Source of the DNA: an uncultured bacterium
GTDB taxonomy: Bacteria > Auribacterota > Erginobacteria > Erginobacterales > CAZKCI01
Assembly (NCBI GenBank): GCA_964584165.1
Contig: CAZOYW010000002.1
Location: 35,488-99,487 of the forward strand
Direction of reading: 5' to 3'
DNA: 64,000 nt
The notes beneath the pieces are model-generated. The model was not told the origin of the DNA, did no database searches, and was given only the letters and a program-made list of their open reading frames with translations. Positions 37,641-62,848 of this stretch are shown here, one piece after another. Every line of letters starts with the position of its first letter. Within the stretch, counting starts at the first letter, position 1. The position numbers and the translations under genes are program-made.

Positions 37641-38780
37641 ATGAGAATCGGCATCAATGCGCTTTATCTCATCCCCGGCCGGGTCGGCGGTTCCGAGATC
37701 TACCTGCGCCGCCTCCTGCAGGGCCTGGCCGCCCTCGACCGGGAGAACGACTATGCGGTCTTCACCAACCGGGAAAGCCGGGGGGGGCTGGCCCTGGGGC
37801 CGAACTTCAAGGAGTATCCCTGCTCCGTCCGCGCCCGCTTCCGCCCCCACCGGATCCTCTGGGAGCAGATCGTCCTTCCCCTCCGGGCGAGGAAGCTTAA
37901 GCTTGACCTCCTCCACTCCCCCGGCTTCACCGCTCCGCTCTTCTGCCCCTGCCCGTCGCTGGTGACGATCCTGGACCTGATCTACCTGGACTTCCCCGAA
38001 ACCTTCCCCCCCTTGGCCCGGGCGATGATGAGGTTCTTCACCCGCCGCTCCGCCCGCGGCGCGGCGCGGGTGATCGCTCTCTCCGGCTACTCGCGCGACG
38101 AGATGCTCTGGGAGCTGGATCTGCCCCCCAACCGGGTCAGCGTCGTCCCGCTGGGCGCGCCCGAGCGGGAGTCGGACGGGCTCTCCCCGGAGGGGAGGAG
38201 GGAGATCCTCTCCCGCCGCGGCATCGTCGCTCCCTACATCCTGGCCATCGCCGCCGCCCATCCCCACAAGAACATCATGCGCCTCCTGGAGGCCTTCTAC
38301 CACCTGCGCCGGAAGGGGCTCCCCCACCGGCTGGTCGTGGTGGGCGTGATGCACGGGCGCTACTACGGGGAGCTCCAGAAGGCGTGCGACCGCTTGGAGA
38401 TCGGGCGGGAGGTCGTCTTCACCGGCTGGATCCCCGAGGCGGAGAAGGAGTCGGTCCTGGCCGGAGCCGATCTTCTCGCCTTCCCCTCCCTGCTCGAGGG
38501 GTTCGGACTCCCGGTCCTGGAGGCGATGAAATTCTCCGTCCCGGTGGCCTGCGCCGACGTGCCCTCCCTGCTCGAGGTCACCGGCGACGCGGCCTACCTC
38601 TTCAACCCCTACTCGGTGGAGGAGATCGCCCGGGCGCTGGAGGCCTGCCTGACCCTGCCGGACCTCCGCCGGGACCTGATCGCAAAGGGGAGGAAGCAGG
38701 CCGCGAACTTCTCCTGGGAGAAGACCGCGCGGCAGACGCTCGACCTCTACCGGTCGGTCGCCGCCGGGGATAAACAGTGA
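37641..38780 (+). CDS. Glycosyltransferase family 4
   Basis: MRIGINALYLIPGRVGGSEIY ... PSLLEGFGLPVLEAMKFSVPVACAD. Confidence 0.8.
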   Translation: MRIGINALYLIPGRVGGSEIYLRRLLQGLAALDRENDYAVFTNRESRGGLALGPNFKEYPCSVRARFRPHRILWEQIVLPLRARKLKLDLLHSPGFTAPLFCPCPSLVTILDLIYLDFPETFPPLARAMMRFFTRRSARGAARVIALSGYSRDEMLWELDLPPNRVSVVPLGAPERESDGLSPEGRREILSRRGIVAPYILAIAAAHPHKNIMRLLEAFYHLRRKGLPHRLVVVGVMHGRYYGELQKACDRLEIGREVVFTGWIPEAEKESVLAGADLLAFPSLLEGFGLPVLEAMKFSVPVACADVPSLLEVTGDAAYLFNPYSVEEIARALEACLTLPDLRRDLIAKGRKQAANFSWEKTARQTLDLYRSVAAGDKQ

Positions 38781-38863
38781 TCAGCAATCAGTGATCAGTT
38801 ATCAGCAACATCCGTCCATCTCTTTTCACTGATCACTGATTACTGATCACTGTTCACTGATCC
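38775..38863. repeat. Compound inverted repeat with 7-bp-periodic arms (TGATCAG...CTGATCA) after the GT4 stop
   Basis: gtgatcagcaatcagtgatcagttatcagca-N19-actgatcactgattactgatcactgttcactgatc. The same family recurs at 45159-45257. Confidence 0.8.
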
Positions 38864-39922
38864 CTGCTTCTCTCCCTTCCGCCGCCTTTCCCGGGCCAGC
38901 TCCTTCTCGAAGGCCGGCCAGAAGGGGTCGGCGAGCGGTTGGCTGAGCCGCCGCGCCCGTCCCCCGCCGAAGACGCGCACCCCCTCCCGTTCCGGGCGGA
39001 CCTCCCCGGCGATCGAGGCCGGGATCGCCGCCCGGTTGAGGGCGCGGATCACCCCCTCCGCCGCCCCGGGGCGGGCGGTGGCAAGGAGCGTCCCCTCGCT
39101 GATCGAGACGAAGGGATCGATCCCGAAGCAGGCGCAGGTCTTCTCGACCTCCTCCGGGATGATGATCCGGTCGAGGTCGATCCGCATCCCCACCCGGCTG
39201 TGGGCGGCGATCTCCCAGAGCCCGCCGAGGACGCCCCCCTCGGTGGCGTCGTGCAGGGCGGTCACCCCTCCCGCCGCGGCCGCGGTCAGGGCGTCCTTCA
39301 CCGTCGACATCCGGTAGTACACGTCCCGGGCCCGGCGGAGGAAAGCCCTCCCCCAGCGCTCCTCGAGCGGGCGGGGGAAATAGGCGGCGAGCAGGCCCGT
39401 GGTCTCGATCGCCGGCCCCTTGCTGACGATGACGGCGTCGCCGACCCGGGCCCGGGGGACGATCAGCTTCTCCCTCCGGTCGATCCCGAACATGGTGGCT
39501 CCGCCCACCATCGGGTAGTTGCACCCGGCGTAGCGGGCGGTGTGGCCGGTGGCGACCGCGATCCCGAGGCGAGCGCATTCCGCGTGGACGGTCCCCCACA
39601 TCCCGACGAGCTCGCGCTCGGTCATCGCGGGGGGGAGGTTGAGATCGATCGAGAGGTAGCGGGGGGCGATCCCGCTGACCGCGACGTCGCTGGCGATGAT
39701 GTGGACGGCGAACCAGGCGGCCTTCTCGATCCCCAGCTCCCGGGCGATGTAGAAGGGGTCGGTGGAGAGGACCAGGACCCGCGTCCCGAGGTCGATGACG
39801 CCGAAGTCGACGCCCGCGCGGGGTTTGAGGATCAGGGAGGGGTCCCTCCGGCCGAGTTTCGGATAGATGTGGCGGCGGAAGAAATCGGGATGGATCTTCC
39901 CCAGCGGAGCCAGTTTCTTCAT
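38840..39922 (-). CDS. AIR-synthase-related protein (PurM/HypE/ThiL-like superfamily)
   Basis: FAVHIIASDVAVSGIAPRYLSIDL ... GIAVATGHTARYAG ... ALHDATEGGVLGGLWEIA parallels HypE/PurM-fold motifs. It lacks HypE's C-terminal Cys. Confidence 0.6.
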   Translation of the reverse strand: MKKLAPLGKIHPDFFRRHIYPKLGRRDPSLILKPRAGVDFGVIDLGTRVLVLSTDPFYIARELGIEKAAWFAVHIIASDVAVSGIAPRYLSIDLNLPPAMTERELVGMWGTVHAECARLGIAVATGHTARYAGCNYPMVGGATMFGIDRREKLIVPRARVGDAVIVSKGPAIETTGLLAAYFPRPLEERWGRAFLRRARDVYYRMSTVKDALTAAAAGGVTALHDATEGGVLGGLWEIAAHSRVGMRIDLDRIIIPEEVEKTCACFGIDPFVSISEGTLLATARPGAAEGVIRALNRAAIPASIAGEVRPEREGVRVFGGGRARRLSQPLADPFWPAFEKELARERRRKGEKQGSVNSDQ

Positions 39923-40232
39923 CTCTTCTCCTCCCGCGGCCGTTCGCCGCGGGCTGCGGTTGGTCGGGAAGATCGCGCCAACGGGGGCAAAACAAAGCCC
40001 CCCGGGCAGAGCACGGAGGGCGACGCGATCCTTTTCCCTACGCCGGCATTACCCGGATCAGGTCCGTCGGGTCTTCCGCTCCCCGCGGAACTCTCAGGCC
40101 GTGGCACGACCTCCCCGTGGTCGTCCCAGTCTCGAGGCAACCGGTCGTTGCTGTCAAGCCCAATCCCCCGGGATGTCTCCCCAATCCCTCGGCCCTAGCG
40201 TTGAGCATTTTCCCCGGTCGGGCATGAGACAC

Positions 40233-40342
40233 CTCGTGTCCGATCGGACACGAGGCGTACGAATCTGCCGGGGCGGAGGGCGGCGGCCCGTCGAGGGCCC
40301 TTCATTACACTTTCATTCCGATCGGAATGAAAGTGTAATGAA
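40233..40342. promoter_or_regulatory. Two perfect palindromes, each centred on CGATCG (24 bp at 40233-40256; 42 bp at 40301-40342), in the gap between the DUF2877 and AIR-synthase-like genes
   Basis: cctcgtgtcCGATCGgacacgagg and ttcattacactttcattcCGATCGgaatgaaagtgtaatgaa. Confidence 0.7.
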
Positions 40343-40426
40343 TCGAAAAGCAGGGGGAGCAGGACGGAAAGAAAGAAAGCGGCCGCCTGACCGATCGAAG
40401 GCGGTTCTGACGGGAATTGGCTCGGG

Positions 40427-41437
40427 CTATTCGCGCTCCGGCTTTCCACCGAGCCCGGCGAGCGCGGCGGCGGTGGCGGCGAAGCCGTCTAGGAGCCAGG
40501 CGCCCGAGGTCGCCCCCCAGGACCGGATCCAGTCGATCCAGGCCGCGGTGCGCCGTTCGTCCCGGGCGCTCAAGGACTCCAGGAAGCGGTAGACGAACTC
40601 GCAGAAGATCCCTTCCGCGGCGGCCGTGAGGAAGTGGGAGCTGATCAGAGTGGTCTTTGCCCAGAGCTTCATGGGAATCCGCGCGATTGCGGACCCCTCC
40701 GGGAAGGCCCGGCGGATATAGCGGCTCGAGGGGAAAGGTGGACGCTCGAGGGGGGATTCGATCATACGCCGGGCCTCCTCGAGCAAGAACGAGCCCGTCG
40801 GGCTCCCTTTCAGCCACCAGGCGGCCGCCATCGCCCCGACGAGGAAATCGTCGCCCGAAGGCGTGAGGCCCTCTCCCAGGCCGATCAGGGCGAGCAGAGC
40901 CTCCCGGAATCGCCCGGCCTCCCGCTGCTCGAGTGCGGCGATGAAAGCGTCGGCGCGCTTCCGGCATTCGTGAAAGTGCTGCTCTCTCGGCCGCCCATGC
41001 GGATCATGCGGACGCGCCTCGAGCATCGTTGGCAGGGCTTGGATCGCCTTTTTCAGGACCTGCCGGGGGGGCGGGGAAGGAAAGGGCGAGGGAGTCCAGG
41101 GCCGGGCGGGACGGAGATCGACGACCAGAGCCGCGGGGGGGCCGTCCCGGGAGGTCCCGGCGGGGGAGACGAAATGGACGGAATCCCCGACCCATATCTC
41201 CAAGTCTCCGAATATCCGGCCGGGGAGGATATCGAGGCAGATGAAGCCGGGACCGTTGAGGCGGTCCTGGCGGACCAGGGGGATCAGTTCGCCGGCGGGG
41301 AGAGCGACGTTGATCGCGCGCTGGAACCAGGACTGGACCCGTCCCCAGTGGCCCTGCTTTTCCAGGAGGGCGCCGAGGCGGCTGTCGTAGGAAACGGCCG
41401 CGATCGTCCGCGACGGAATTCTTTGGTCTCTGGCCAT
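40427..41437 (-). CDS. DUF2877-family protein (AllH/YlbF-like)
   Basis: GLGEGLTPSGDDFLVGAMAA is the DUF2877 hallmark. Start MARDQRIPSR at 41437. Confidence 0.5.
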   Translation of the reverse strand: MARDQRIPSRTIAAVSYDSRLGALLEKQGHWGRVQSWFQRAINVALPAGELIPLVRQDRLNGPGFICLDILPGRIFGDLEIWVGDSVHFVSPAGTSRDGPPAALVVDLRPARPWTPSPFPSPPPRQVLKKAIQALPTMLEARPHDPHGRPREQHFHECRKRADAFIAALEQREAGRFREALLALIGLGEGLTPSGDDFLVGAMAAAWWLKGSPTGSFLLEEARRMIESPLERPPFPSSRYIRRAFPEGSAIARIPMKLWAKTTLISSHFLTAAAEGIFCEFVYRFLESLSARDERRTAAWIDWIRSWGATSGAWLLDGFAATAAALAGLGGKPERE

Positions 41438-41639
41438 CGGTCTCGGGGATTCCGTAGCCGTGGATCTTTCCGGTCCGCGCCCGCGAACGTGTCGTAGCCG
41501 CGCGCCGGCGGGGGATCGCGGGATTGACACCGCCGGCGAATTCCCCTATTAATTATACGACCGGCCCGCCGGGGGCGGAAAAGCTATTGCCCTGACCCTC
41601 CCCGGACCGGGGTGACAATGTTCTGACCGGATCAAACAT

Positions 41640-41662
41640 AAAATTTTCCGGAGGAAAATTTT
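41640..41662 (+). promoter_or_regulatory. Perfect AT-rich hairpin enclosing the SD: aaaattttcc-GGA-ggaaaatttt, abutting the ATG at 41663
   Basis: Read directly. A 10-bp stem with a 3-nt loop; the GGAGG Shine-Dalgarno spans the loop and right arm. Confidence 0.75.
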
Positions 41663-42172
41663 ATGGGAATGGTGAACATCAACCGGCCGATCCACCTGGC
41701 GCTCCGGGACGGTTCCTACGAGAAGTTTCTCGGCCTCCTCAAGCCCTCGTTCGAGGGGCGCCCGCTCGCCTCGCGCAAGAAGATCGTCGGCGCCGCGGTC
41801 GAGAGCCTGGAGGGGGCGCACGCCGCCGCCTCCGGGGCCCTGCGCGGGGTCATGGGGAGCCAGCGGGAACGGGACTTCTGCAAATTCCTCCGGATGATCC
41901 TCGACTCCGCCCGGTCGGTCAAGTTTCTGGTTGAGCACGAGGAGATCCTGGAGCAGGACACCAGCTTCCTGAAGCGCTTCCTCTCCGGGTCGCCGCAGGC
42001 GGTGACCGACGCGCGGGCGATCCGCCGCCGGAAGGCGGAGGAGTTCCTGGAGGGGGTCAGGACCATGGCCCGGCTCGGCGAGAAGGAGTTTCAGAAGCTC
42101 CAGGCCGAGAACTTCCAGGCCTTGAACGAGGACGAGCGCCGGCGCTATCGGGCGATGCGGGCCAACCCATGA
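41663..42172 (+). CDS. Hypothetical protein (169 aa), first gene of the operon leading to the M16 peptidase
   Basis: ORF with the unusual SD hairpin. Its stop overlaps the next start (ATGA). Confidence 0.45.
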   Translation: MGMVNINRPIHLALRDGSYEKFLGLLKPSFEGRPLASRKKIVGAAVESLEGAHAAASGALRGVMGSQRERDFCKFLRMILDSARSVKFLVEHEEILEQDTSFLKRFLSGSPQAVTDARAIRRRKAEEFLEGVRTMARLGEKEFQKLQAENFQALNEDERRRYRAMRANP

Positions 42173-42558: not shown

Positions 42559-45170
42559 TCGCCGCCCGCCTTTCTTTTCTCCTCGGCCTCGCCCTCGTCT
42601 GCCCGGGCGGGGAGGCCGCGGGGGAGATCGCCTTCACCGCTCCCCCCGCCGCCCGCACCGTCCTCCCCAACGGCCTGACCGTGGTCGTCCGGGAGGACCG
42701 CGACCTGCCGGTCGCGGCCGTCCAGCTCTGGGTGCGGGCGGGATCCGTCTTCGAGGGCGTTCGGCTCGGCGCCGGCCTCTCCCACCTCGTCGAGCACCTC
42801 GCCTTCAAGGGAACGGCGGGGGCGGGCCAGGAGGAGATTCCCCGGAAGATCCAGGCCCTGGGGGGAGAGATCAACGCCTTCACCTCCCTCGACCACACCG
42901 TCTTCGACCTGAAGGTCCCCTCCGCCCGCCTCCGCCCCGCCCTCGCCCTCCTCCGGGACCTCGTTCTCGCGGTCGCCTTCGAGCCCGATGAGATCGCCCG
43001 GGAGAAGGAGGTCGTCCTCAAGGAGATGAACATGAACCGGGACGACCCGGACCGGCGGGTCTCCGAGCTTTTCTGGGCGACCGCTTTCCAGGTCCACCCC
43101 TACCGCTTCCCGGTCATCGGTTATCCCCGGATCCTGGAGGACCTCTCCGTCGAGGACGTGGTCTCCTACTACCGGACCTGGTACGTCCCGAACAACATGG
43201 TCCTCGCCCTCTCCGGCGATCTCTCCGCCGCCGAGGCCTTCGCCCTGGCGGAGGAGACCTTCCGGAACGACCCGCGGAAGCCCTACCCGCTCGCCTCCCT
43301 CCCCGAGGAGCCCCCCCAGCTCGTCGCCCGGGAGGCCGAGGAGACGATGGCGGTGGCCTCCGCCCGCCTCCAAGTCGGCTTCCACACCGTCAGCCTCTAC
43401 CACCCCGATCTCTACCCGCTGGACGTCCTGGCCATCCTGCTCGGGCAGGGGCGCTCCTCGATCCTCTGGCAGGAGCTTCGGGAGAAGCGGGAACTCGTCC
43501 ACGCGATCAGCGCCTCCTCCTACACGCCCTCCTATCCCGGGGTTTTCGTCGTTTCCGTCGAGCTCGATGACTCCGATCTCCCCGCGGCCCGCGCGGCGAT
43601 CGGGGAGATCCTGGGGCGGGTACGGGCGGGGGAGCTTCTGACCGCGGAAGGGTTGGAGAAGGCTCGCCGCCAGGTCCTGAGCGACTACGTGGGCTCGCTC
43701 CAGACCGTGGAGGGCGAGGCCCACGATCTCGGCTCCAGCCTCCTCCTCACCGGCTCTCCGGATTTCTCCCGGAGATACGTGGAGGGGATCGGCGCCGTCA
43801 CCCTTCCGGACCTCGCCCGGGTGGCGGCCCGCTATCTCGTCGACGACAACATGACCACGGCGGTCGTCCGCCCCCGTCCGGCCGCCCCGCCCAAGGCGGC
43901 GGCGACGCCGGCCGGGAAGGGGGAGATCCTCAAGCGGGTCCTCCCCAACGGGCTCACGGTCCTCGTCCGGTCCGAGCCCCGCCTCCCCCTGGTCTCGCTG
44001 CGCATCTTCTTCCGGGGCGGCGTGCTGGCCGAGACCGAGAAAAACAACGGGCTCGGCAACCTGCTCGCCCGGATGCTCCTCCAGGGGACGGCCGGACGAA
44101 GCGCCCGCCGGATCGCCGACGAGGTCGAGGGGAAGGGGGGATCGATCGGGTCCTACTCCGGGCACAACAGCTTCGGGGTTTCGGTCTCCGTCCTCTCCGA
44201 CGAGCTCAATCCGGGGCTGGACCTCCTGGCCGACGTTTGCCTTCACCCGACCTTCCCCCCCGAGGAGATCGAGAAGGAGCGGGCGGTGATCCTCTCCGAG
44301 ATCGCCGCGGAGCGCGACCAGCCGGAGACGATCGCCGGCCTCCTCGCCCGGGAGGCGATCTTCGGCTCCCATCCCTACCGCTACCGGGCGGTGGGGACGG
44401 AGGCGGCGGTCTTGCGGCTCGGGCGGGCCGACCTGGAGGAATGGCACCGGAGGTACTGCTGCGGCCGTAACGGGGTCCTCGCCGTCTTCGGCGACGTCGA
44501 TCCGGAGCGGGCCTTCGCCCTGGCGGAGAAGGCCTTCGCCGGTCTCCCGGCGGGGGAGGAGGCCGCCCTGGCCGGGCGCTTCCCCCGTTCCGTCCCGCTC
44601 TCGTCGCGCCGGGTCGAGTCCAAGCCGGGAGCGGCCCAGGCCGTCCTGATGGTCGGCTTTCCGGGCGTGGACGTGAAGAGCCCCGACCGCTATCCCCTGG
44701 AGGTCTTGAGCGGGATCTTCACGGGACTCGGCTCTACCCTCTTCATGCGGGTGCGGGACGAGCTGGGGCTCGCCTACTACCTGGGGGCGCACGAGATCCT
44801 CGGCCTCGACCCCGGAGCCTACATCTTCTACGCCGGGACGGTCCCGGGGAAGACCGAGACGGCGCTCGGGGAGATCCGCTCCGAGATCCGCCGGGTGCAG
44901 GAGGGCGGGGTCACGGAGGAAGAGCTCAAGCGCAACCAGGACCGCCTGATCGGCCGCCGCGAATTCAGCCTCCAGTCGAACGACGGTCTCGCCTTCGCCG
45001 CCGCCCTGGACGAGCTCTACGGCCTGGGCTACGACAACTACCGGGAGTACGAGGGGGAGATCAGGAAGGTCAACGCGGCCGATCTTCAGCGCGTGGCCCG
45101 GGAGTACCTGCGCTCCGACCGCTGCGCCGTGGTGATCGTGCAGCCGGATGAAAAAACAAGTGATCAGTAA
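42555..45170 (+). CDS. Fused tandem M16-family zinc peptidase (insulinase/PqqL-like, ~870 aa)
   Basis: Signal peptide. GLSHLVEHLAFKGT is the inverted HxxEH zinc motif in the first half. The second half is an inactive-type M16 repeat (NLLARMLLQGTAGRSA). Confidence 0.8.
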   Translation: MIAARLSFLLGLALVCPGGEAAGEIAFTAPPAARTVLPNGLTVVVREDRDLPVAAVQLWVRAGSVFEGVRLGAGLSHLVEHLAFKGTAGAGQEEIPRKIQALGGEINAFTSLDHTVFDLKVPSARLRPALALLRDLVLAVAFEPDEIAREKEVVLKEMNMNRDDPDRRVSELFWATAFQVHPYRFPVIGYPRILEDLSVEDVVSYYRTWYVPNNMVLALSGDLSAAEAFALAEETFRNDPRKPYPLASLPEEPPQLVAREAEETMAVASARLQVGFHTVSLYHPDLYPLDVLAILLGQGRSSILWQELREKRELVHAISASSYTPSYPGVFVVSVELDDSDLPAARAAIGEILGRVRAGELLTAEGLEKARRQVLSDYVGSLQTVEGEAHDLGSSLLLTGSPDFSRRYVEGIGAVTLPDLARVAARYLVDDNMTTAVVRPRPAAPPKAAATPAGKGEILKRVLPNGLTVLVRSEPRLPLVSLRIFFRGGVLAETEKNNGLGNLLARMLLQGTAGRSARRIADEVEGKGGSIGSYSGHNSFGVSVSVLSDELNPGLDLLADVCLHPTFPPEEIEKERAVILSEIAAERDQPETIAGLLAREAIFGSHPYRYRAVGTEAAVLRLGRADLEEWHRRYCCGRNGVLAVFGDVDPERAFALAEKAFAGLPAGEEAALAGRFPRSVPLSSRRVESKPGAAQAVLMVGFPGVDVKSPDRYPLEVLSGIFTGLGSTLFMRVRDELGLAYYLGAHEILGLDPGAYIFYAGTVPGKTETALGEIRSEIRRVQEGGVTEEELKRNQDRLIGRREFSLQSNDGLAFAAALDELYGLGYDNYREYEGEIRKVNAADLQRVAREYLRSDRCAVVIVQPDEKTSDQ

Positions 45171-45257
45171 TCAGTGATCAGCAGCGGGCAAACAGAGGCA
45201 TCGTTTTCTCGCTGATCACTGGTCGCTGATCACTGATCGCTGATCACTGATCACTGG
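45159..45257. repeat. Second compound TGATCAG 7-mer inverted repeat, between the M16 peptidase stop and the DUF1844 gene
   Basis: gtgatcagtaatcagtgatcagca-N33-gctgatcactggtcgctgatcactgatcgctgatcactgatcac. Confidence 0.8.
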
Positions 45258-45276
45258 ACAGGAAAGGAGGAGCCGC

Positions 45277-45828: not shown

Positions 45829-47565
<1,737 letters not shown>

Positions 47566-47655: not shown

Positions 47656-47937
47656 ATGAGCACTATTCAATGTTCCAAATTCAATCTCAGCGAGAGGTTC
47701 TTCCTCTTCGCCCTGGAAATTGTCAAGTTGGTACGATCCTTGCCCAACGATCCAGCCGCCCGGGAGATTGGGAAGCAATTGATCCGCGCCGGGACTTCGA
47801 TCGCTGCCAACTACGAAGAAGCCCTCGGTTCCTTCAGTAGGAAAGATTTCACCTATAAATTAAGTACCGCTTCTGCCTTCTCACTTCTAACTTCATATTT
47901 CTCACTTCTCATTTCTCACTTATGCCGAAGGCATTGA
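47656..47937 (+). pseudogene. Truncated four-helix-bundle protein gene ('23S rRNA intervening-sequence protein' family) bracketed by the inverted 7-mer repeats
   Basis: FNLSERFFLFALEIVKLVRSLPNDPAAREIGKQLIRAGTSIAANYEEALGSFSRKDFTYKLSTA matches helices 1-3 of the family. The expected fourth helix is replaced by repeat-encoded SAFSLLTSYFSLLISHL. Confidence 0.6.
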
Positions 47938-48881: not shown

Positions 48882-48937
48882 AAACGAGGGACGGTGGCAA
48901 CTTGTCAACTATCAAGTTGACAAGTTGCCACCGTCCC

Positions 48938-50194
48938 TCATGCCTTTTTGAGCAGGCGCTTCAGGGCGGCGGCGGGGTTCCGGACCAGGTCCCGGTTCAC
49001 GCGCAGGCGCTTGACGGGGGAGGAGGGGAGCTCGTACTTGAAGTTCCTTAAGATCCGCTCGCAGACGGTGGAGAGCCCCCGGGCCCCCGTCTTCTCCCGG
49101 TGGGCCAACTTCGCGATCTCGGCCATCCCGTCCTCGGTGAAGGCGACCTCGATCCCGAAGGAGGCGAAGGAGGCTTGGTACTGGCGGAGGATCGACCCCT
49201 CGGATCGGGCGAGGATCTCCAGGAAGTCCTTCTCCGCGAGTTCCTCGCAGACCACCCGCACCGGGAGCCGCCCGATGAACTCGGGCTCCAGCCCGTACTT
49301 GATGAAGTCCTCGGTGGCGGCGCGCTGCAGGTACTCGAAGTGCCTCCGGGTCTCCCCCGCCTCCGCCCCGAACCCCAGCGTCCGCGCCGCCGTGCGCCGC
49401 TTCACCAACTCGGCGAGCTCCTCGAACGCCCCGCTGACGATGAAGAGGATGTGGCGGGTGTTGATCATCTTGGGCTGGATCTTCCCCTTCTGCTGGAACT
49501 CCAGCACCGCCTCGAGCTGGCCGGCCATGTCCATGGGGTCGCGCAGGGGAACGTCCGTCTCCTCCATCAGCTTGAGGAGGTTTCTCTGCACGCCCGCCCC
49601 GGAGACATCCCGCCCGGCGAGGTTGTAGGCGGAGGCGATCTTGTCCACCTCGTCGATGTAGACGATCCCGTACTGGGCGAGCGCGAGGTTACCCTCGGCG
49701 TGCTGGCAGAGCTCCCGGATCATGTCCTCCACGTTGCGCCCGACGTATCCGGTCTCGCTGTACTTGGTGGCGTCGGTCTTGACGAAGGGGACGCCGATCA
49801 AGCGGGCGATGCACTTGACCAGGTAGGTCTTGCCCACCCCGGTCGGACCGATCAGGAGGACGTTCTGCTTGGCGTAGTCGTATCCTGGCGCCCCCGCCTT
49901 GGCCCGCATCGCGTGCTGGTAGTGGTCGCAGACGGCGATGGAGAGCACCTTCTTCGCCTCCTCCTGGCGGATGACGAAGCGGTCGAGATACTCCTTGACC
50001 TGCTTGGGGGTGTAGTCGAAGGCGAGGGTGAAGGATTCAGCCCGGGGTTCCGCCCGGGGGCGGGGAGGGCGGACGACCGGCGGCTCGACGGCGATGATCG
50101 GCTGCCCGCCGTATTTTCGGCGGACGTAGTCGCTCAAGTCCTTGATCATCTCCTGCAGGTCGGGGGGATTTTTCGGCGGGGTGTCTTCAGGCAT
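48938..50194 (-). CDS. ClpX-like AAA+ ATPase lacking the N-terminal C4 zinc-binding domain
   Basis: YLDRFVIRQEEAKKVLSIAVCDHY ... NVLLIGPTGVGKTYLVKCIARLIGVPFVKTDATKYSETGYVGRNVEDMI parallels ClpX. The N-terminus is Pro-rich with no CxxC. ATG at 50194 has an AGAGG SD. Confidence 0.7.
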   Translation of the reverse strand: MPEDTPPKNPPDLQEMIKDLSDYVRRKYGGQPIIAVEPPVVRPPRPRAEPRAESFTLAFDYTPKQVKEYLDRFVIRQEEAKKVLSIAVCDHYQHAMRAKAGAPGYDYAKQNVLLIGPTGVGKTYLVKCIARLIGVPFVKTDATKYSETGYVGRNVEDMIRELCQHAEGNLALAQYGIVYIDEVDKIASAYNLAGRDVSGAGVQRNLLKLMEETDVPLRDPMDMAGQLEAVLEFQQKGKIQPKMINTRHILFIVSGAFEELAELVKRRTAARTLGFGAEAGETRRHFEYLQRAATEDFIKYGLEPEFIGRLPVRVVCEELAEKDFLEILARSEGSILRQYQASFASFGIEVAFTEDGMAEIAKLAHREKTGARGLSTVCERILRNFKYELPSSPVKRLRVNRDLVRNPAAALKRLLKKA

Positions 50195-50214: not shown

Positions 50215-50268
50215 CGATTCTAACCCGGTTTATTCATGAAAACCGTTGGTTTTTATGAATAAACCGGG
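50215..50268. terminator. ~50-bp near-perfect AT-rich palindrome between the amidohydrolase stop and the clpX-like start
   Basis: ctaacccggtttattcatgaaaacc-gtt-ggtttttatgaataaaccgggttag. Confidence 0.6.
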
Positions 50269-51087
50269 TTAGGAACCTTGCCCGTCGACGGTCGGCTCCA
50301 GGCCCAAAAGCCGCTCGGCGTTGCGGAAGAGGATCTTCTCCCGCCGGTCCTCGGGGAGATCCAGTTCCCTCCAGACCCGGAGTTCCTCCTTTTGATCGAG
50401 CCAGGGGGAGTCGGTCCCGAAAAGCAGGTAGTCCGGGGGGTGCTTCTCCAGGATCGCGCGGAAGACGGCTTCTTCCGCCTCCCGGGCGGCGAAGGAGGTC
50501 TCCAGGTAGATCGGCTTTCCGGCCAGCGTCTGGAGGACCTCCGGCCAGAGCTGCCAGCCGCCGAGGTGGGAGGCCACGATCTTCAGGGAGGGGAAGGCCT
50601 GGTGGACCCGGAGGATCCGGGAGGGGTCGGCCTGGTGGTTCCCCGGGAAGGCGATGTCGAAGCCGGCATGGAAGAGGAGGATCAGGCCGCTTCCGGCGAC
50701 CGCCTCGTAGAGCGGGAAGAGAGCGGGGTCGTCGATGGTGAATTCCTGGTACATCGGGTGGAGCTTGATCCCGGGGAACCCCTCCGCGGCTATCCTCTCG
50801 ATCTCCGGGACGGCGCGCGGGGAGCGGGGATGGACGGAGGGGAAGGGGATGATCCGGGGGCCCCGGATCAGGGACGACCAGCGGAGGATCTTCTCCGCCT
50901 GCTCGGGCTTGGTGGCGATGGAGGCGACGACCGCCGCGCCGATCCCGGCCCGGTTCATGGAGATCAGGAGGCCGCGGATCGTCGCGTCGTGGTAGGCCCG
51001 GTAGTCGCCGGAGTTGGCGCCTAAGGCGTTAAGCGCCCGCTCCGCCAGGCTGTCCGGGAAGGCGTGGGTGTGGAAGTCGATGACCAT
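50269..51087 (-). CDS. Amidohydrolase-family (TIM-barrel metal-dependent hydrolase, Amidohydro_2-like)
   Basis: MVIDFHTHAFPD ... LFHAG ... GTDSPW. Confidence 0.65.
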   Translation of the reverse strand: MVIDFHTHAFPDSLAERALNALGANSGDYRAYHDATIRGLLISMNRAGIGAAVVASIATKPEQAEKILRWSSLIRGPRIIPFPSVHPRSPRAVPEIERIAAEGFPGIKLHPMYQEFTIDDPALFPLYEAVAGSGLILLFHAGFDIAFPGNHQADPSRILRVHQAFPSLKIVASHLGGWQLWPEVLQTLAGKPIYLETSFAAREAEEAVFRAILEKHPPDYLLFGTDSPWLDQKEELRVWRELDLPEDRREKILFRNAERLLGLEPTVDGQGS

Positions 51088-52716: not shown

Positions 52717-52790
52717 GTGATGGACGATATGGACGGGATGGACGGAATGGACTGAATTGATGGGATGGACCGAAGGACAAAACGGCGGAG
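52717..52790 (-). repeat. Second GTCCATNNC 9-bp-periodic array (x5-6, read on the minus strand), 60-130 bp upstream of the secreted SGNH gene; it encodes ...SIPSIQSIPSIPSISSI... in one frame
   Basis: The plus strand reads gatggacgatatggacgggatggacggaatggactgaattgatgggatggac. Confidence 0.7.
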
Positions 52791-52925: not shown

Positions 52926-53717
52926 GTGACCAGTTTCGTGCTCGTTGCCGCCCTGCTCATCCCCGGCCAGACCGTCGGCGCCGAGCCGTCACCCGCCCCG
53001 GCCGGAGAGACGATCCGGCTTTTCGCCGCCTCGCCGTCCCCCGCCGTCTCGCCGTCTCTCGCCGTCTCCCCGAAGTTGCGTCCTCAGCGCCCATACTCCG
53101 GCCTCCCCGCCGCGCCGCCGCCCGCTCCCGCGAAGAGTCCGGTCGCCGACCGCTGGCCGGTCGAGGTCGGCCTCAAGGGCGGTCTCTGCCGGGCCGGGAT
53201 CAGGGGCGACGGGACCGAGGGATGGGAGGATCGCGACGGCTTCTGCGGGGGAGGGTTTCTCTTCCTCCCCTTGAGCGACTACTTCGGCCTCCAGGCGGAG
53301 CTGCTCTACGTGAGCAAAGGAGCCGAATACAAGGAAGACTGGGGCGGGGCGGAACTCAAGACCACGCTCGACCTCGCCTACCTGGAGATCCCCCTCCTGG
53401 CCCGCCTGACCATCCCCACCGGCATCTCGCTCACCCCCTCCATTTTCGCCGGCCCCGTCCTCGGCCTCAAGGTCAAGGGCGACCAGAAGGCGGAATCCCG
53501 GGGGCGTTCGACATCGGAGGAGATCGAGGGGCTGAAATCCACCGACCTGGGGCTGACCCTGGGCGGGGGCCTGGACTTCGACACCGGCTACGGCAAAGCC
53601 CTCGTCGATCTCCGCTACGAGTTCGGCCTCACGGAGATCCTCGACGACGGGGGATCGGTCAAGAACGGCGCCTTCCTGGCCATGGTCGGATACTCCCTTA
53701 ATTTTTGGCCCTTTTAG
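52926..53717 (+). CDS. Outer-membrane beta-barrel protein (OmpA-like porin family, OMP_b-brl)
   Basis: Signal peptide, Pro/Ser-rich linker, alternating beta-strands, C-terminal ...SLNFWPF. GTG start with an AGGAGAG SD. Confidence 0.6.
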   Translation: MTSFVLVAALLIPGQTVGAEPSPAPAGETIRLFAASPSPAVSPSLAVSPKLRPQRPYSGLPAAPPPAPAKSPVADRWPVEVGLKGGLCRAGIRGDGTEGWEDRDGFCGGGFLFLPLSDYFGLQAELLYVSKGAEYKEDWGGAELKTTLDLAYLEIPLLARLTIPTGISLTPSIFAGPVLGLKVKGDQKAESRGRSTSEEIEGLKSTDLGLTLGGGLDFDTGYGKALVDLRYEFGLTEILDDGGSVKNGAFLAMVGYSLNFWPF

Positions 53718-53745
53718 CCCGACGGGCTAAAAGGGCCAAAAATTA
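53705..53745. terminator. Perfect bidirectional terminator hairpin ttggcccttttagcccg-acg-ggctaaaagggccaa
   Basis: Read directly. It lies between convergent genes. Confidence 0.7.
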
Positions 53746-53761
53746 AAACTCCGCAGGACCG

Positions 53762-55552: not shown

Positions 55553-55709
55553 GGCTTCCTCCGAGATTGGCGATTTTTTCACATTATATATCTCCCTCCG
55601 CGCCCGGCGCCAGAGCTATCGATGGGTCCGCCGGACGAAAAAATGTCTTGCGCGTTTCGGCCCCAGTGCTACGATTGTATCAAACGTGCTACCAAGAAGG
55701 AGGGCGCTG

Positions 55710-56126: not shown

Positions 56127-56165
56127 ACCCGTCGCGCGTCTGACTCCGGGCGGAGAGGAGGAGAA

Positions 56166-57329: not shown

Positions 57330-57377
57330 CACCGGCGATTTGTGCGCCGGTTTACAAACGAAAAGGAGGAATCGGAC

Positions 57378-58433: not shown

Positions 58434-58452
58434 GCTGGTAAGGGAGGGCGTC

Positions 58453-59256
58453 ATGGGGCTGGCGGACTGGATCGAGATCGGGCGCATGGACGAGCTGGGG
58501 CGCCTGGACACCCCGGTCCACCGGATCGACGCGCGGGCCAAGGCGGTCGTCACGGTGGCTTTCATCGGCGTCGTGATGTCGTTCCCTATCTACGCGCTCT
58601 CCGCGCTGACCCCGTTTCTCCTCTATCCGGTCTTCCTCCTCTCGCTCGGCGGAATCCCGGTGCGGCACATCCTGAAGAAGCTGCTCGTGGCGGCGCCCTT
58701 CGCCCTGGCGGTGGGCCTCTTCAACCCCCTCCTGGATCGCCGGCCGGTGGCCTTCCTGGGGCCCTTCGCCGTCACGGGCGGGTGGGTGTCGTTCGCCTCC
58801 ATCCTGTTTCGCTTCATTCTGACGGTCGGGGCGGCGCTCTCCCTGGTCGCCTGCACCGGGATGTATCGCCTGGGCGCCGGCCTGGAGAAGCTCGGGGTCC
58901 CCCGCATGCTGGTCGTGCAGCTCCTCTTCCTCTACCGCTATCTCTTCGTGGTGGCGGGCGAGGGGGCCAAGATGCTGCGCAGCGCGGAGATCCGCTCCGG
59001 GCGTCGCGCCCTGCGCCTGGCCGCCTACGGTTCGCTCCTGGGGCACCTCCTCCTGCGCTCCCTGGACCGGGCGGAGCGCGTCTATCGCGCCATGGTCTCG
59101 AGGGGTTTCGACGGCCGTATCCGCCTCCGCCGGCCCCACCCCTTCCGCTGGTCCGACTGGACATTCGCCGGGGGCTGGCTGGCCTTCTTCCTCGCCGCCC
59201 GCCTCTGGAACCTCGCGTCCGCCCTGGGCCGCCTCTTCACGGGGATTGCGCCATGA
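58453..59256 (+). CDS. cbiQ: ECF transporter T component CbiQ/NikQ
   Basis: Polytopic membrane protein with a conserved ...AEIRSGRR... region. ATGA-coupled to cbiO. Confidence 0.7.
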   Translation: MGLADWIEIGRMDELGRLDTPVHRIDARAKAVVTVAFIGVVMSFPIYALSALTPFLLYPVFLLSLGGIPVRHILKKLLVAAPFALAVGLFNPLLDRRPVAFLGPFAVTGGWVSFASILFRFILTVGAALSLVACTGMYRLGAGLEKLGVPRMLVVQLLFLYRYLFVVAGEGAKMLRSAEIRSGRRALRLAAYGSLLGHLLLRSLDRAERVYRAMVSRGFDGRIRLRRPHPFRWSDWTFAGGWLAFFLAARLWNLASALGRLFTGIAP

Positions 59257-59996
59257 GCCACCATATCGTGGAAGTCTCCGATCTGCACTACGCCTACCCG
59301 GACGGAACGCCGGCGCTCCGGGGGGTTTCCTTCCGGATCGAGCACGGCGCCGCGGTGGCCGTCGTGGGCGGCAACGGCGCCGGCAAGTCCACTCTCCTGC
59401 TCCACCTCAACGGCTACCTCAAGGCCGGGCGCGGAACGGTGCGGATCGGGGACACGATCGTCGTCCGCGAGACCGCCGCGGAGGCCCGCCGGGCGGTGGG
59501 GCTGGTCTTCCAGGATCCCGACGACCAGCTCTTCATGCCGACCGTGGAGGAGGACGTCGCCTTCGGACCGCTGAACGCGGGCCTTCCGCCCGACGAAGTC
59601 GAGGCCAGGGTGGCGTCGGCCCTGGAGCGGGTGGGGATGGCGCACCTGCGGGGGCGTCCGCCCTACCGCCTCTCCGCGGGCGAGAAGAGGGCCGTGGCGA
59701 TCGCGACCGCGCTCGCGATGTCTCCGGACATCCTGGTCATGGACGAGCCGTCCGCCCACCTCGACCCCCGCGCCCGCCGCCGGCTGATCAGCCTCCTCAA
59801 GTCCTTCGAGCACACCAGGATCATCGCCACGCACGACCTGGAGTTGGTCGTCGAGGTCTGCTCGCGGGTAATCGTCCTCGACGGCGGTCGCGTCGTCGCG
59901 GACGGGCCGTCCGCGGCGGTCCTCTCCGACGAGCCTCTGCTCATCGCCCACGGCCTCGAGCGCCCGCACATCCTCCGCCACCTCCACCCGCACTGA
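59253..59996 (+). CDS. cbiO: ECF transporter ATPase CbiO/NikO
   Basis: Walker [22 protein letters not shown] signature, Walker B ILVMDEP. Confidence 0.8.
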
Positions 59997-60114
59997 TCGG
60001 ACGGATGGACGGCGAAGTAACCACGAATCTCGCGAATCCGCGGTTTCTTTTTCGCCGGGCTAAGCCGTTGTTTTCCGTTCGCCTTCCCCCCCCGCTGGAC
60101 TACAATGGCTTGCC

Positions 60115-60969
60115 ATGCGCCCGTCCCTCAGCGCCAAGGAAGCCGAGCTCCGCGCGGGCCTGAAGAAGCTCGGCGGCGTGCTCATCGCCTTCTCCGGCGG
60201 GGTGGACAGCTCGGTCCTCCTGGCCGCCGCCGCCCGGGCGCTGCCGCGGAGGCGCCTCCTCGCCGTCACCGCCCGCTCGCCGACCTTCCCCCCCGAGGAG
60301 CTCAAGTCCGCCCGGGCGATCGCCCACAAGCTCGGCATCCGCCACCGCGTCGTCGAGTCGTCCGAGTTCGACGATCCGCGCTTCGTTGCCAACCCCCTCC
60401 GGCGCTGCTACTTCTGCAAGAGCGCGCTCTACCGGGGCCTCCGTCGGATCGCGCGGGAGGAAGGCCTGCCCGCCGTCGCCGACGCCACCAACCTCGACGA
60501 CCTCGGCGATTACCGCCCGGGAAGGCGCGCGGCGAGGGAGCGCGGCGTGGCGAGCCCGCTCCTCGCCGCCGGACTGAACAAGGCCGAGGTCAGGCTCCTG
60601 GGACGGCGCTATGGCCTGCCCAACTGGAAGAAGCCCGCCGCCGCCTGCCTCGCCTCCCGCGTCCCCTACGGGACGCGCCTCACGCCGCGCCTCCTCTCCC
60701 GGATCGCCGCCGCCGAGCGCCTTCTCAAGCGGATGGGGTTTGGGGAGGTGCGCGTCCGCCACCACGGGGAGATCGCGCGGATCGAGCTGGGACGGGCCGA
60801 GACGGCGAAACTCGCGGGACCGGCTTTCGCCCGCCGGGCCGTCTCCGGCCTGCGCCGTCTCGGCTGGCGCTACGTCGCCCTCGACCTCCGGGGCTACCGG
60901 ATGGGGTCCCTGAACCCGGGGGCTGAGGTTAAAAATCGGAGATTTGAAATTAGAAATCTCGAATTTTAA
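60115..60969 (+). CDS. larE: ATP-dependent sacrificial sulfur transferase LarE (Ni-pincer cofactor biosynthesis), PP-loop ATPase
   Basis: PP-loop AFSGGVDSS, the characteristic ...KPAAACLASRVPYG Cys motif, and a nickel-uptake genomic context. Confidence 0.7.
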   Translation: MRPSLSAKEAELRAGLKKLGGVLIAFSGGVDSSVLLAAAARALPRRRLLAVTARSPTFPPEELKSARAIAHKLGIRHRVVESSEFDDPRFVANPLRRCYFCKSALYRGLRRIAREEGLPAVADATNLDDLGDYRPGRRAARERGVASPLLAAGLNKAEVRLLGRRYGLPNWKKPAAACLASRVPYGTRLTPRLLSRIAAAERLLKRMGFGEVRVRHHGEIARIELGRAETAKLAGPAFARRAVSGLRRLGWRYVALDLRGYRMGSLNPGAEVKNRRFEIRNLEF

Positions 60970-61007
60970 ATTTCATATTTGAGATCCGAGATCATCCCGC
61001 GGTCGCC

Positions 61008-62762
61008 ATGGACCTTCCGAAGACCGATTTCCGCCTCTCCATGCTCGTCATCCTCCTCGGCGTCTGCGGGGGGGTGCTCGCTTCGGTCCTCTGGTATATC
61101 CAGGTGATCCGGGGCGACGAATACTCCCGCCTGGCCGAGGGGAACCGCATCCGCCTCGTCACCATCCCGGCCCCCCGGGGCACGATCTTCGACCGGGACG
61201 GGAAGATCCTGGCCGACAACCGCCCCGGCTTCGAGACGGCGGTCAACGTCGGCGAGGTGAGCGACCGGGACAAGCTGGTCTCCCGCCTGAGCGAGGTCCT
61301 GGAGATCGAGCCGGAGAAGATCCGCGCGCGCCTCGCCCGCTTCCGCCAGAAGCCTTTCGAGCCGGTCCGCCTCGCCACCGACATCGGGATCGCCCGGGCC
61401 ACGGTCTTCGAGGAGCGCAGCCCCGAATGGGAAGGGGTGGAGGTCCGGGTGAACCCGGTCCGGAACTACCCCTACGGGGCCGCCCTCGTCCACCTGATCG
61501 GCTACGTCGGCCAGATCGACGCGCGGGAGCTGGAGCGGCTCGGCGATCTCGGCTACGGCTCCCAGGACGATATCGGCAAGATCGGGGTGGAGGAGTCCTA
61601 CGATCTCTTCCTCCGCGGAGTCGCCGGGGGAGAGCAGCTCCAGGTCAACGCCCGCGGCTACCGGGACCGGGTCCTGGCCGGGCGGGACCCCCAGGCCGGG
61701 AACAACCTTCACCTGACGTTGGACCTGCGCGCCCAGACCATCCTGGACGGGATTTTGGAGGGGCGGAAGGGCGCGGCCGTGGCCATCGACCCTCGCAACG
61801 GGGACCTCCTGGCCCTGGTCAGCAAGCCCTCCTTCGACCCCAACCTCCTCACCCGCCCGGTGGACGAGGAGTATCTCCAGGCGATCTTCTCCAGCCCCGA
61901 CTCCCCGATCCTGAACCGCGCCCTGGCCGGGGAATACCCCCCCGGCTCGCCCTTCAAGGTGGTAGTAGTCCTGGCGGGGTTCCGGTCGGGGAAGCTCAAC
62001 CCGGAGGCGCCCACCGACTGTCCCGGCTTTATCACGCTCGGCTCGACCGTCTTCCGCTGCTGGAAGGAAGGTGGGCACGGCCCCCTCGCCCTCCGGGAAG
62101 CGATCAAGAACTCCTGCAACGTGTACTTCTACCGCCTCGGCCTCGACCTCGGCATCGACCGCCTGCGGGAGGCGGCTCTCCTCGTCGGCTTCGGGGAGAA
62201 GGCCGGGATCGGCCTCCTGGGAGAGAAGGGGGGATTCGTCCCCTCCCGCGAATGGAAGAAGACGGCGCTTCACGAGGGGTGGTACCCGGGAGACACGGCC
62301 AACCTCTCCATCGGCCAGGGCTACATCCGGGTGACGCCGCTCCAGATGGCCGGACTGGGCGCGTTGATCGCGAGCCGCGGCAAGCTCTACAAGCCGCGCC
62401 TGGTCTCCCGGATCACCAACCCCCGGGGGGAGACGATCGAGGAGTACCCCCCGGTAGTCCGGAGGGAGATCCGCCTCCCGGCCCGCCAGTGGGACGACAT
62501 CTGGACCGGGATGGGCAAGGTGGTGAACGAGGAGGGAGGGACGGGGAGAGGGGCCGCCCATCCCCGGGTCATGGTTTACGGCAAGACCGGGACGGTCCAG
62601 GTGGGCGCGCCGCCCGACTATTCGACCCACGCCTGGTTTCTGGCCTTCGTCCCTTCCGGGGAGAGGCCGATCGTTCTCGCCTTGATCCTGGAGGAGCCGG
62701 GCTCGGGGGGAGAAGTGGCCGCCCCGGCGGCGGGGGAGTTCTTCCGGAAGTACTACGAGTAG
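61008..62762 (+). CDS. mrdA: Penicillin-binding protein 2 (class B PBP, elongasome transpeptidase)
   Basis: PBP dimerisation plus transpeptidase domains with SxxK (GSPFK), SxN (SCN) and KTG (KTGT). Confidence 0.85.
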   Translation: MDLPKTDFRLSMLVILLGVCGGVLASVLWYIQVIRGDEYSRLAEGNRIRLVTIPAPRGTIFDRDGKILADNRPGFETAVNVGEVSDRDKLVSRLSEVLEIEPEKIRARLARFRQKPFEPVRLATDIGIARATVFEERSPEWEGVEVRVNPVRNYPYGAALVHLIGYVGQIDARELERLGDLGYGSQDDIGKIGVEESYDLFLRGVAGGEQLQVNARGYRDRVLAGRDPQAGNNLHLTLDLRAQTILDGILEGRKGAAVAIDPRNGDLLALVSKPSFDPNLLTRPVDEEYLQAIFSSPDSPILNRALAGEYPPGSPFKVVVVLAGFRSGKLNPEAPTDCPGFITLGSTVFRCWKEGGHGPLALREAIKNSCNVYFYRLGLDLGIDRLREAALLVGFGEKAGIGLLGEKGGFVPSREWKKTALHEGWYPGDTANLSIGQGYIRVTPLQMAGLGALIASRGKLYKPRLVSRITNPRGETIEEYPPVVRREIRLPARQWDDIWTGMGKVVNEEGGTGRGAAHPRVMVYGKTGTVQVGAPPDYSTHAWFLAFVPSGERPIVLALILEEPGSGGEVAAPAAGEFFRKYYE

Positions 62763-62771
62763 GGAGATAAT

Positions 62772-62848
62772 GTGTCAGGTGTAAGGTGTCAGGTGTCAGG
62801 GAAGCGGTGCTGCGGTTATTTTTTCCCTGACACCTAACACCTGACACC
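62772..62848. terminator. Compound inverted repeat with GGTGTCA 7-mer arms and a T-run (terminator / REP-like)
   Basis: gtgtcaggtgtaaggtgtcaggtgtcaggg-N-ttattttttccctgacacctaacacctgacacc. Confidence 0.7.

Follow-up and report, generated by a model that had tools for sequence, protein, structure and literature searches.

Four intergenic hairpins in a 64,000-nucleotide (nt) stretch of DNA from an uncultured bacterium (contig CAZOYW010000002.1; the whole stretch is referred to as the window) share one architecture, in which an array of tandem heptamers forms one arm and an inverted array forms the other. The four had been listed by a first-pass annotation of the window, and their period-7 arrays and inverted arms were confirmed at each locus. 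One of them, at 47.5 kb, encloses a predicted truncated four-helix-bundle (4HB) gene, and its best-supported reading is a decayed cassette of the type found as intervening sequences (IVSs) in 23S rRNA. On balance, these four loci, together with three or more other hairpins of the window, probably represent widespread IVS-type hairpin cassettes and their gene-less relics.

The 47.5-kb cassette

The window was searched with Tandem Repeats Finder for arrays and with an inverted-repeat search for complementarity between arms. At 47.5 kb, period 7 is reported at 47479-47560 (approximately eight or more copies) and at 47877-47921 (6.4 copies), and the arms are inverted over 57 nt with a 79% match and a gap of 325 nt (Table 1). 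In the minimum-free-energy fold of the 461-nt cassette, the arms pair around the enclosed open reading frame (ORF), with an energy of -162.8 kcal/mol (z -6.1).

The first-pass annotation had recorded this CTTCTCA/TGAGAAG pair around a 300-bp insert; the pair is real, and the content of the insert had been missed. By homology, the insert is identified as a truncated gene for a 4HB protein, of the family also called S23p and homologous to Avd of retroelements. The ORF, at 47656-47937 between the CTTCTCA arms, matches both PF05635 (23S rRNA-intervening sequence protein), with E 1.6e-10 over profile positions 7-66 of 106, and TIGR02436 (four helix bundle protein), with E 9e-14. Only the first approximately 70 codons are homologous, and past this part the frame enters the right arm. 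Upstream, the left arm encodes approximately the last 18 codons of gmd (46493-47533; stop codon 47531-47533), and downstream the right arm ends directly at the ATG of an epimerase gene (47922).

Upstream genes that read through purine-rich left arms occur in the window (46493-47533) and also at loci L091 (2745-2996) and L093 (1232-2965). Their Lys/Glu/Ser-rich tails are repeat-encoded and probably not native C-termini, and annotation should allow for neighbouring genes, such as gmd, whose C-terminal tails are sometimes supplied by a repeat arm.

Orthologous sites in relatives

The gmd-epimerase site differs among relatives. At locus L102, it carries an intact 4HB gene of 122 amino acids (P0002), which is 74% identical to the truncated gene of the window and is its closest full-length homologue. 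The L102 arms, with at least 16 and approximately 14 AGAAGT-type units, are much longer than those of the window. The epimerase start, MPRALITG, follows the cassette in L102 as in the window, and the window cassette is collinear with that of L102 but approximately 200 nt shorter. The closest species-level relative, L019, has 77% amino-acid identity to the window in the M16 peptidase gene (43% for the next representative), and there the gmd-epimerase site is a 47-nt spacer with only a two-unit AGAAG-type hairpin (GGGAGAAGCAGGAAGT / ACTTCTTGCTTCCCC). As judged from these sequences, the site exists in three states: an intact cassette (L102), a truncated one (window), and a bare hairpin (L019).

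Two other sites also differ in L019. The site between the GT4 and AIR-synthase-type genes holds one direct TGATCAC array, and the M16-DUF1844 spacer has no array, the 45.2-kb element being absent. The first-pass view of the elements as a repeat system is borne out, the system being dispersed and polymorphic: across these three orthologous sites, L019 keeps a relic hairpin at one, one arm at another, and no element at the third. Moreover, L019 has arrays at sites where the window has none, it carries a GTCCATNNC (GTCCAT-type) array at 8410-8451 in an apparently non-orthologous position, and arm lengths differ between the window and L019 while the unit is kept. At L019 18424-18499, adjacent non-complementary arrays, ATGGTGA x4.6 and CGTTGCA x4.4, lie directly upstream of an amidohydrolase gene; the corresponding site in the window is array-free.

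A gene-less hairpin can also accompany a complete cassette within one operon. At L093 4488-4569, a hairpin whose units match those of the adjacent full cassette lies one spacer downstream of it, directly ahead of the start codon that follows; L091 has nothing at the orthologous junction.

4HB genes and inverted arrays across phyla

Further 4HB genes were located by protein look-ups and a DNA pattern scan, and their flanks were read by eye. Twenty of 21 such genes are bracketed by mutually inverted short-repeat arrays. These comprise the window copy, four genes on contigs of Candidatus Peribacteria (candidate phyla radiation), four close homologues from Planctomycetota, Deltaproteobacteria, and another metagenome-assembled genome, six annotated plasmid genes from cultured Nostoc, Anabaena, Planktothrix, Chlorohelix, Chondrinema, and Treponema, the genes of L102 and L105, and three that adjoin GGTGTCA arrays (L114, L126, and L137). 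The bracketed genes fall in at least seven named phyla (Candidatus Peribacteria, Planctomycetota, Deltaproteobacteria, Cyanobacteriota, Chloroflexota, Bacteroidota, and Spirochaetota, with Cyanobacteriota represented by Nostoc, Anabaena, and Planktothrix), and the lineage of the window comes on top of these. The arms of one locus, L040, are degenerate.

An automated and conservative test was applied to 18 of the 4HB genes, requiring a Tandem Repeats Finder array no more than 120 nt away on each side. Twelve of the 18 were flanked in this way, and nine of these 12 were scored as inverted; among size-matched random intervals from those loci, the rates were 0.35% and 0.04%, respectively.

The arms are complementary within each cassette, yet unrelated in sequence between most cassettes. 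Because cassettes with otherwise unrelated arm sequences retain complementarity across approximately 400 nt, the evidence points to pairing, rather than the sequence of the unit, as the conserved property. Each of the three unit families of the four window elements also supplies arms to intact cassettes in other loci: CAGTGAT is the arm unit of intact cassettes L058 and L099, AGAAGT that of L102 and L091-L093, and GGTGTCA that of intact cassettes L114, L126, and L137. Gene similarity correlates with the sharing of arm 6-mers (Mantel r 0.45, p 0.0002), which fits inheritance or transfer of gene and arms together.

Homologues of the 4HB clade are found on 26 of 72,556 plasmids, at least 22 of the 26 being cyanobacterial and 13 from Nostoc. 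Heterocystous cyanobacteria are where short tandemly repeated repetitive (STRR) sequences were first described. The arms of the Planktothrix cassette consist of the AATCCCC (GGGGATT) unit, one of the heptamers known from Xanthomonas and Nostoc. On the Nostoc punctiforme plasmid pNPUN02, the 4HB gene lies at 59135-59506 between AATTCGC arms.

The 2-oxoacid:ferredoxin oxidoreductase operon of L091, which holds a 4HB cassette, also contains a PDDEXK_3 (PF13366) gene at 5271-5675. This gene is flanked by direct GATTAAACAGATTTAA copies, not by inverted heptamer arrays, and may represent a second kind of small operon-invading cassette.

The gene-less hairpins

The hairpins at 38.8, 45.2, and 62.8 kb contain no ORF. 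Like the 47.5-kb element, they are inverted pairs of tandem 7-mers, and the four loci have stems of 25-35 bp and z scores of -6 to -9.6.

At 38.8 kb, Tandem Repeats Finder reports period-7 arrays of 4.4 copies at 38775-38805 and of 5.9 copies at 38826-38866, and the arms are inverted over 27 nt with a 96% match. The TGA stop codon of a GT4 glycosyltransferase gene (38778-38780) falls in the first unit of the left arm, and a minus-strand AIR-synthase-type gene has its stop codon (38840-38842) within the right arm. The RNA folds with -40 kcal/mol on the plus strand (z -7.7) and -51.7 kcal/mol on the minus strand (z -8.6). At 45.2 kb, period 7 is found at 45159-45181 (3.3 copies) and 45212-45256 (6.4 copies), with arms inverted over 24 nt (92% match) and a fold of -50.7 kcal/mol (z -6.3). 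The M16 peptidase gene ends with a TAA stop codon (45168-45170) in the second unit of the left arm, and directly past the right arm come the ribosome-binding site (AGGAGG) and start codon (ATG, 45277) of the DUF1844 gene. The 62.8-kb hairpin lies within the PBP2-RodA gene pair and has period 7 at 62772-62800 (4.1 copies) and 62826-62848 (3.3 copies); its arms are inverted over 29 nt with a 90% match, and it folds with -47 kcal/mol (z -6.7 and -9.6) and lacks a T-tail.

All of these elements had been placed just 3ʹ of genes, which is correct in that their arms overlap stop codons, but incomplete in that arms also abut start codons; the elements occupy very short spacers and extend into genes. 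A consensus scan called no intrinsic terminator at any of the four, and no T runs follow the 3ʹ arms. With the lack of a U-tract and with loops of 19-67 nt, the elements are not intrinsic terminators of the consensus type. The earlier view that these are not simple terminators holds, also given the positions of one element inside the PBP2-RodA pair and another before a ribosome-binding site.

The minus-strand AIR-synthase-type gene that ends in the 38.8-kb hairpin (38840-39922) probably encodes thiamine-monophosphate kinase (ThiL), because a thiamine pyrophosphate (TPP) riboswitch lies upstream of it (40018-40125, minus strand; 58.8 bits). This riboswitch was the sole family returned by an Rfam scan of the window, with no rRNA, and the window has no tRNAs.

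Arrays of the window

The window is a chromosomal polysaccharide and cell-envelope region, with genes for GT4 and GT2 transferases, Wzy, a flippase, Wza, gmd, PBP2, RodA, and others. Arrays were counted with a period of 7-10, at least 2.8 copies, and a score of at least 36, against 30 dinucleotide-preserving shuffles. The window holds 21 such arrays, compared with a mean of approximately 0.5 in the shuffles (an approximately 40-fold excess); for arrays with low-GC units, the counts are 16 and approximately 0.03, and all of the low-GC arrays lie at gene boundaries. The window arrays are head-to-tail copies of a 5-11-nt unit, longer than expected by chance and mostly intergenic, and they include seven inverted, convergent pairs of the kind seen in Xanthomonas. 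As RNA, the hairpins have energies of -31 to -64 kcal/mol and z scores of -5.6 to -12 relative to shuffles, on both strands.

The first-pass list of four loci is real and incomplete: arrays with units of 9 and 10 nt stand at seven more loci. At least eight unrelated unit families are present within the 64 kb, and three families are seen twice: TGATCAG, GTCCATNNC (GTCCAT type), and ACGTAACCTT. The 33879-33918 and 52720-52778 arrays form one unit family with the L019 8410-8451 array, and the 793-914 and 32700-32745 arrays have the same unit as reverse complements, 32 kb apart. Arrays of this latter type lie directly upstream of a PqqD-like gene (917-1213) and a radical-SAM/SPASM gene (32750-33733). 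The 35049-35111 element extends over the stop codon of a GT4 gene. Palindromic cores are present in several units (TGATCA, CCTATAGG, CGAATTCG, and TTACGTAA), and because of these a direct array is already self-complementary. The density of GATC sites, which the first-pass annotation singled out as a feature, is a mere consequence of the TGATCAG unit, which contains them, and the window has no Dam-type methylase.

Table 1. Coordinates of hairpin arms, arrays, and the enclosed gene in the window
Feature	Position	Strand	Units and setting
Cassette left arm	47479-47560	+	At least 8 units of CAGAAGT/GAGAAGT
Truncated 4HB gene (predicted)	47656-47866	+	PF05635 and TIGR02436 matches
Cassette right arm	47870-47926	+	6.4 units of CTTCTCA
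TGATCAG hairpin 1, left arm	38773-38805		4.4 units of CAGTGAT
TGATCAG hairpin 1, right arm	38826-38866		5.9 units of TCACTGA
TGATCAG hairpin 2, left arm	45159-45182		3.3 units
TGATCAG hairpin 2, right arm	45209-45256		6.4 units of CTGATCA
GGTGTCA hairpin, left arm	62772-62803		4.1 units, 10 nt past PBP2 stop codon
GGTGTCA hairpin, right arm	62823-62851		3.3 units of CCTGACA, 52 nt ahead of RodA start
CGCGGATTA x3 and inverse	6556-6676 (arms 6556-6582 / 6650-6676)		67-nt loop, between two minus-strand genes, -64 kcal/mol
CGAATTNCG x3 and inverse	22788-22849 (arms 22788-22812 / 22828-22849)		Convergent genes either side, -31 kcal/mol, z -7.5
CCTATAGGN x5.7, 9-mer array	35049-35111		Perfect 31+31 nt palindrome, -63.6 kcal/mol, z -11.8
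Direct ACGTAACCTT array	793-914		Ends just ahead of PqqD-like gene ATG
Direct GTTACGTAAG x4.6 array	32700-32745		Fills 55-nt spacer between sugar-transferase and radical-SAM genes
Solo GTCCATNCC x4.4 array	33879-33918		30 nt upstream of GT4 gene
Solo ATGGACNNN x6.7 array	52720-52778		Reverse complement of GTCCAT unit; divergent intergenic region

Hairpins of a non-repetitive kind are also carried by this genome. Perfect or near-perfect palindromes without periodicity, with arms of 24-25 nt and loops of 0-4 nt, stand at the gene boundaries 40301-40342, 48886-48939, 50220-50272, and 53698-53746, two of them between convergent genes. At 22151-22237, a 44-nt unit that holds a GC-rich hairpin (GCGCGGACC...GGTCCGCGC) is present as two copies (95% match) in the spacer preceding a ParB-N-domain gene. 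The gene for an 878-amino-acid FG-GAP repeat protein contains ordinary coding repeats of 120 and 240 nt at 23111-23643.

Array surveys beyond the window

Copies exist beyond the window: its unit families recur in L019 and in at least 120 metagenome contigs. GGTGTCA was surveyed in contigs with a perfect (GGTGTCA)x3; at least 120 matched, and 80 (474 kb) were classified. An inverted partner lies within 150 nt in 29 of the 80 and at 166-468 nt in 10, three of which have a 4HB gene; in six, the array is at the contig end. The only 4HB genes in these 474 kb are those of L114, L126, and L137, each between an array and its inverse. At L146 1088-1466 and L141 184-586, the stretch between a GGTGTCA array and its inverse is 310-350 nt long and has neither a long ORF nor a 4HB signal, and translations of these stretches suggest nested further tandem arrays.

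Over 1.41 Mb of assorted loci, 7 is the commonest period (116 of 238 arrays). The median array length hardly depends on period, being 31, 32, 31, 32, and 32 nt for periods 7, 8, 9, 10, and 12, respectively, and period-7 arrays have a sharp length mode at 31-33 nt. Array length thus looks as if it is set by a length rule rather than a copy-number rule. Locus L024, from a bacterium labelled ANGP1, holds 18 arrays in 22.6 kb.

Proposed origin and alternative explanations

A complete cassette consists of a small 4HB gene between two mutually inverted arrays, commonly of approximately 32 nt each with units of 7-10 nt. It occupies a very short intergenic spacer, usually co-oriented with its neighbours. 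In the proposed scheme, host promoters would transcribe it, because it reaches from the stop codon of the upstream gene, which it overlaps, up to the start codon of the downstream gene. Its transcribed arms would pair to form a double-stranded stem of 25-35 bp, which by analogy with IVSs might be an RNase III substrate, or else a stable processing or stability element, and this would let the insert be tolerated. The gene could then decay and be deleted between the repetitive arms, leaving gene-less hairpins such as those at 38.8, 45.2, and 62.8 kb and perhaps solo arrays, and replication slippage would lengthen or shorten the arms that remain. The three gene-less hairpins are most simply explained as relics of such deletion. 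The arms would travel with the gene, as indicated by the correlation between arms and genes and by the intact cassette at the site of a relative's relic. RNase III cleavage, action in RNA rather than DNA, the mode of movement, and the role of the protein are the parts of this scheme that we infer.

Several results weigh against descent from such cassettes. Profile searches of six-frame translations found no significant 4HB remnant in the loops of the gene-less window hairpins, and descent is consequently visible directly at only one site; hmmsearch of six-frame translations likewise gave nothing significant for GGTGTCA pairs of intermediate size (gaps of 166-470 nt). Solo arrays make up 35 of the 80 classified GGTGTCA contigs. 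One 4HB gene, at L103 in a Dependentiae genome, has no arrays and is the lone exception among the 21. Some genes that share arms are only 40-46% identical (46% for L126 and L137), and the gene of L105 is 72% identical but has unrelated arms; for this reason the arms can be exchangeable or of independent origin. In L024, inverted GTTCCCCT arrays (7237-7266 / 7770-7792) flank an ordinary gene, ORF 7167-7769, which from its sequence is taken to be peroxiredoxin-like. Sense and antisense stems show no consistent bias in energy or in G-U counts and so do not demonstrate action at the RNA level. In 10 same-species contigs from other samples, the arrays are identical and without variation, and they are for that reason uninformative on change over time; an apparent 14-nt indel among them was a scaffold gap of Ns. 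Finally, the palindromic cores of units mean that slippage alone could build a hairpin.

The last point leads to the rival that survives best, which is tenable but less likely. The hairpins would have been built in place by replication slippage of short, often palindromic motifs, as in bacterial long simple-sequence repeats (SSRs), and kept as factor-dependent terminators or as 3ʹ or intercistronic stabilisers of mRNA, and 4HB genes would insert or survive best there. Self-complementary direct arrays, above all the one at 35049-35111 that is both an array and a perfect palindrome, are what slippage would produce, and the non-periodic perfect palindromes at gene ends in the window also fit. Arm lengths that differ between relatives with the unit unchanged recall Xanthomonas, in which the gene context is kept from species to species for 83% of heptamer arrays, with lengths that change (PMC4692102). 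The many solo arrays, the empty loops, and the mismatches between arms and genes would be expected as well. However, termination would be harmful inside the PBP2-RodA pair, where one element lies, and neither the absent T-tail nor loops of 19-67 nt favour it. Slippage in place also leaves unexplained why related genes of different phyla carry related arms (Mantel p 0.0002), why the site of a relative's relic holds an intact cassette with the same arms, and why identical unit families stand at non-orthologous sites within a lineage.

The constancy of array length bears on another explanation, an improbable one, in which the arrays are DNA or RNA binding sites for a sequence-specific or length-measuring protein, either the 4HB protein itself or a translational regulator, with regulation of neighbouring genes as their main role and the hairpin secondary. 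A commonest length of approximately 31-32 nt whatever the unit length would suit such a protein, as would the conservation of units between the window and L019 and the deposition of the closest solved 4HB homologue, 2RLD, with five chains; solo arrays directly upstream of start codons resemble the TAACTGA repeats reported in that position (PMC4679880). With eight or more unrelated unit families in the 64 kb, however, recognition by sequence would call for many distinct binders, and binding does not account for arm complementarity kept over approximately 400 nt despite unrelated arm sequences.

Mobilisation in trans by a transposase elsewhere in the genome, either a REP-associated tyrosine transposase (RAYT) or another type, acting on elements like repetitive extragenic palindromes (REPs), bacterial interspersed mosaic elements (BIMEs), REP doublets forming hairpins (REPINs), or MITEs (miniature inverted-repeat transposable elements), is very improbable, for although the elements are intergenic, palindromic, and dispersed, repeat some unit families (TGATCAG, GTCCAT, and ACGTAACCTT, each twice), and are present, absent, or different at orthologous sites of relatives, they have no consensus beyond periodicity, unit families that differ by locus, no GTAG/CGTC tag at the arm ends, no visible terminal inverted repeats with target-site duplications, and an associated gene that belongs to PF05635, with no transposase in the approximately 48 window genes or the related loci inspected.

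If the reading of these elements as cassettes and relics is extended, the short tandem arrays of bacteria (STRRs and the heptamers of Xanthomonas, Beggiatoaceae, and uncultured phyla) would largely be arms or relics of one ancient, horizontally spreading family of 4HB cassettes, with the ORF-bearing 23S IVSs as a special case. The 4HB protein, as an oligomer, would recognise the arms of approximately 32 nt and drive their spread or upkeep, possibly via an RNA intermediate, by analogy with Avd and reverse transcriptase. This extension is speculative and, as a whole, unlikely.

Comparison with known systems

Rho-independent terminators resemble the window elements in being stable hairpins at the 3ʹ ends of genes, and two of the window elements lie between convergent genes. 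Unlike terminators, some window elements immediately precede a ribosome-binding site or fall within likely operons.

REPs, BIMEs, and REPINs are likewise intergenic palindromes, often just past genes; they can stabilise mRNA, and REPINs are inverted pairs. In contrast, the arms of the window elements are internally periodic, vary in sequence by locus, and lack a conserved palindromic consensus of 20-40 bp. The REP/BIME-like identity suggested by the first-pass annotation was not upheld, as there is no shared REP consensus and Pfam scans found no RAYT or other transposase, Y1 or otherwise, and no integrase or reverse transcriptase among the approximately 48 window genes.

Avd, of the diversity-generating retroelements, is a cofactor of the retroelement's reverse transcriptase. 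It is placed in the same Pfam family as the 4HB protein, PF05635 (PMC10053308). Unlike these retroelements, the window has no reverse transcriptase domain and no template or variable repeat, and its repeats are short tandem arrays.

Tandem heptamers are the commonest class of longer SSR in bacteria, as Mrazek 2007 is quoted in PMC4679880. The heptamers of Xanthomonas and Nostoc (GGGAATC and GGGGATT), the cyanobacterial STRRs, and the long SSRs are tandem 7-mers of approximately four units, mostly intergenic and transcribed, and like the window arrays they vary in length between species and keep their genomic context. Xanthomonas has 70-75 inverted GGGAATC array pairs per genome, described as potential stem-loops, and its arrays are mostly transcribed and have been read as G-quadruplex formers (PMC4692102). 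Unlike these, the window units are not G-rich, and quadruplex formation is therefore not a common property; hairpins of this kind should be annotated by default neither as G-quadruplex elements nor as terminators. The literature searched reports no gene link for the Xanthomonas and Nostoc arrays.

The closest likeness is to the 23S rRNA IVSs of Coxiella burnetii and Leptospira, in which a PF05635 protein (the S23p ORF) is enclosed in a long inverted-repeat hairpin. In the Coxiella IVS, two to three tandem GACAGAT heptamers, in a strain-variable number, precede the S23p ORF; RNase III cleavage falls at the first of these repeats, inside the stem of the inverted repeats; and the ORF is apparently decaying (PMC4990558). 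Variable-number heptamers beside an ORF, a decaying ORF, and a sporadic, horizontal-looking distribution are thus common to both. Unlike the IVSs, the window elements lie between protein-coding genes and not in helix 9, 25, or 45 of the rRNA, most copies have no ORF, and RNase III excision, known for the IVSs, would be an extrapolation for the window. The window elements are IVS-like in build and are not rRNA IVSs.

A tie between 4HB genes outside rRNA and flanking tandem arrays was not found in the full-text literature, which leaves subscription journals mostly uncovered, and it may already be published. Two puzzles of approximately 30 years are joined by it: the scattered tandem heptamers, and the small, apparently selfish 4HB gene found in 23S IVSs and at random-looking operon sites, including cas operons, within which 23S_rRNA_IVP genes have been noted (PMC3936711). 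Such repeats serve as arms of 4HB cassettes in seven or more named phyla, and at one site a series from intact to bare can be followed. The architecture itself is already known; its tie to 4HB cassettes and to rRNA intervening sequences appears to be new.

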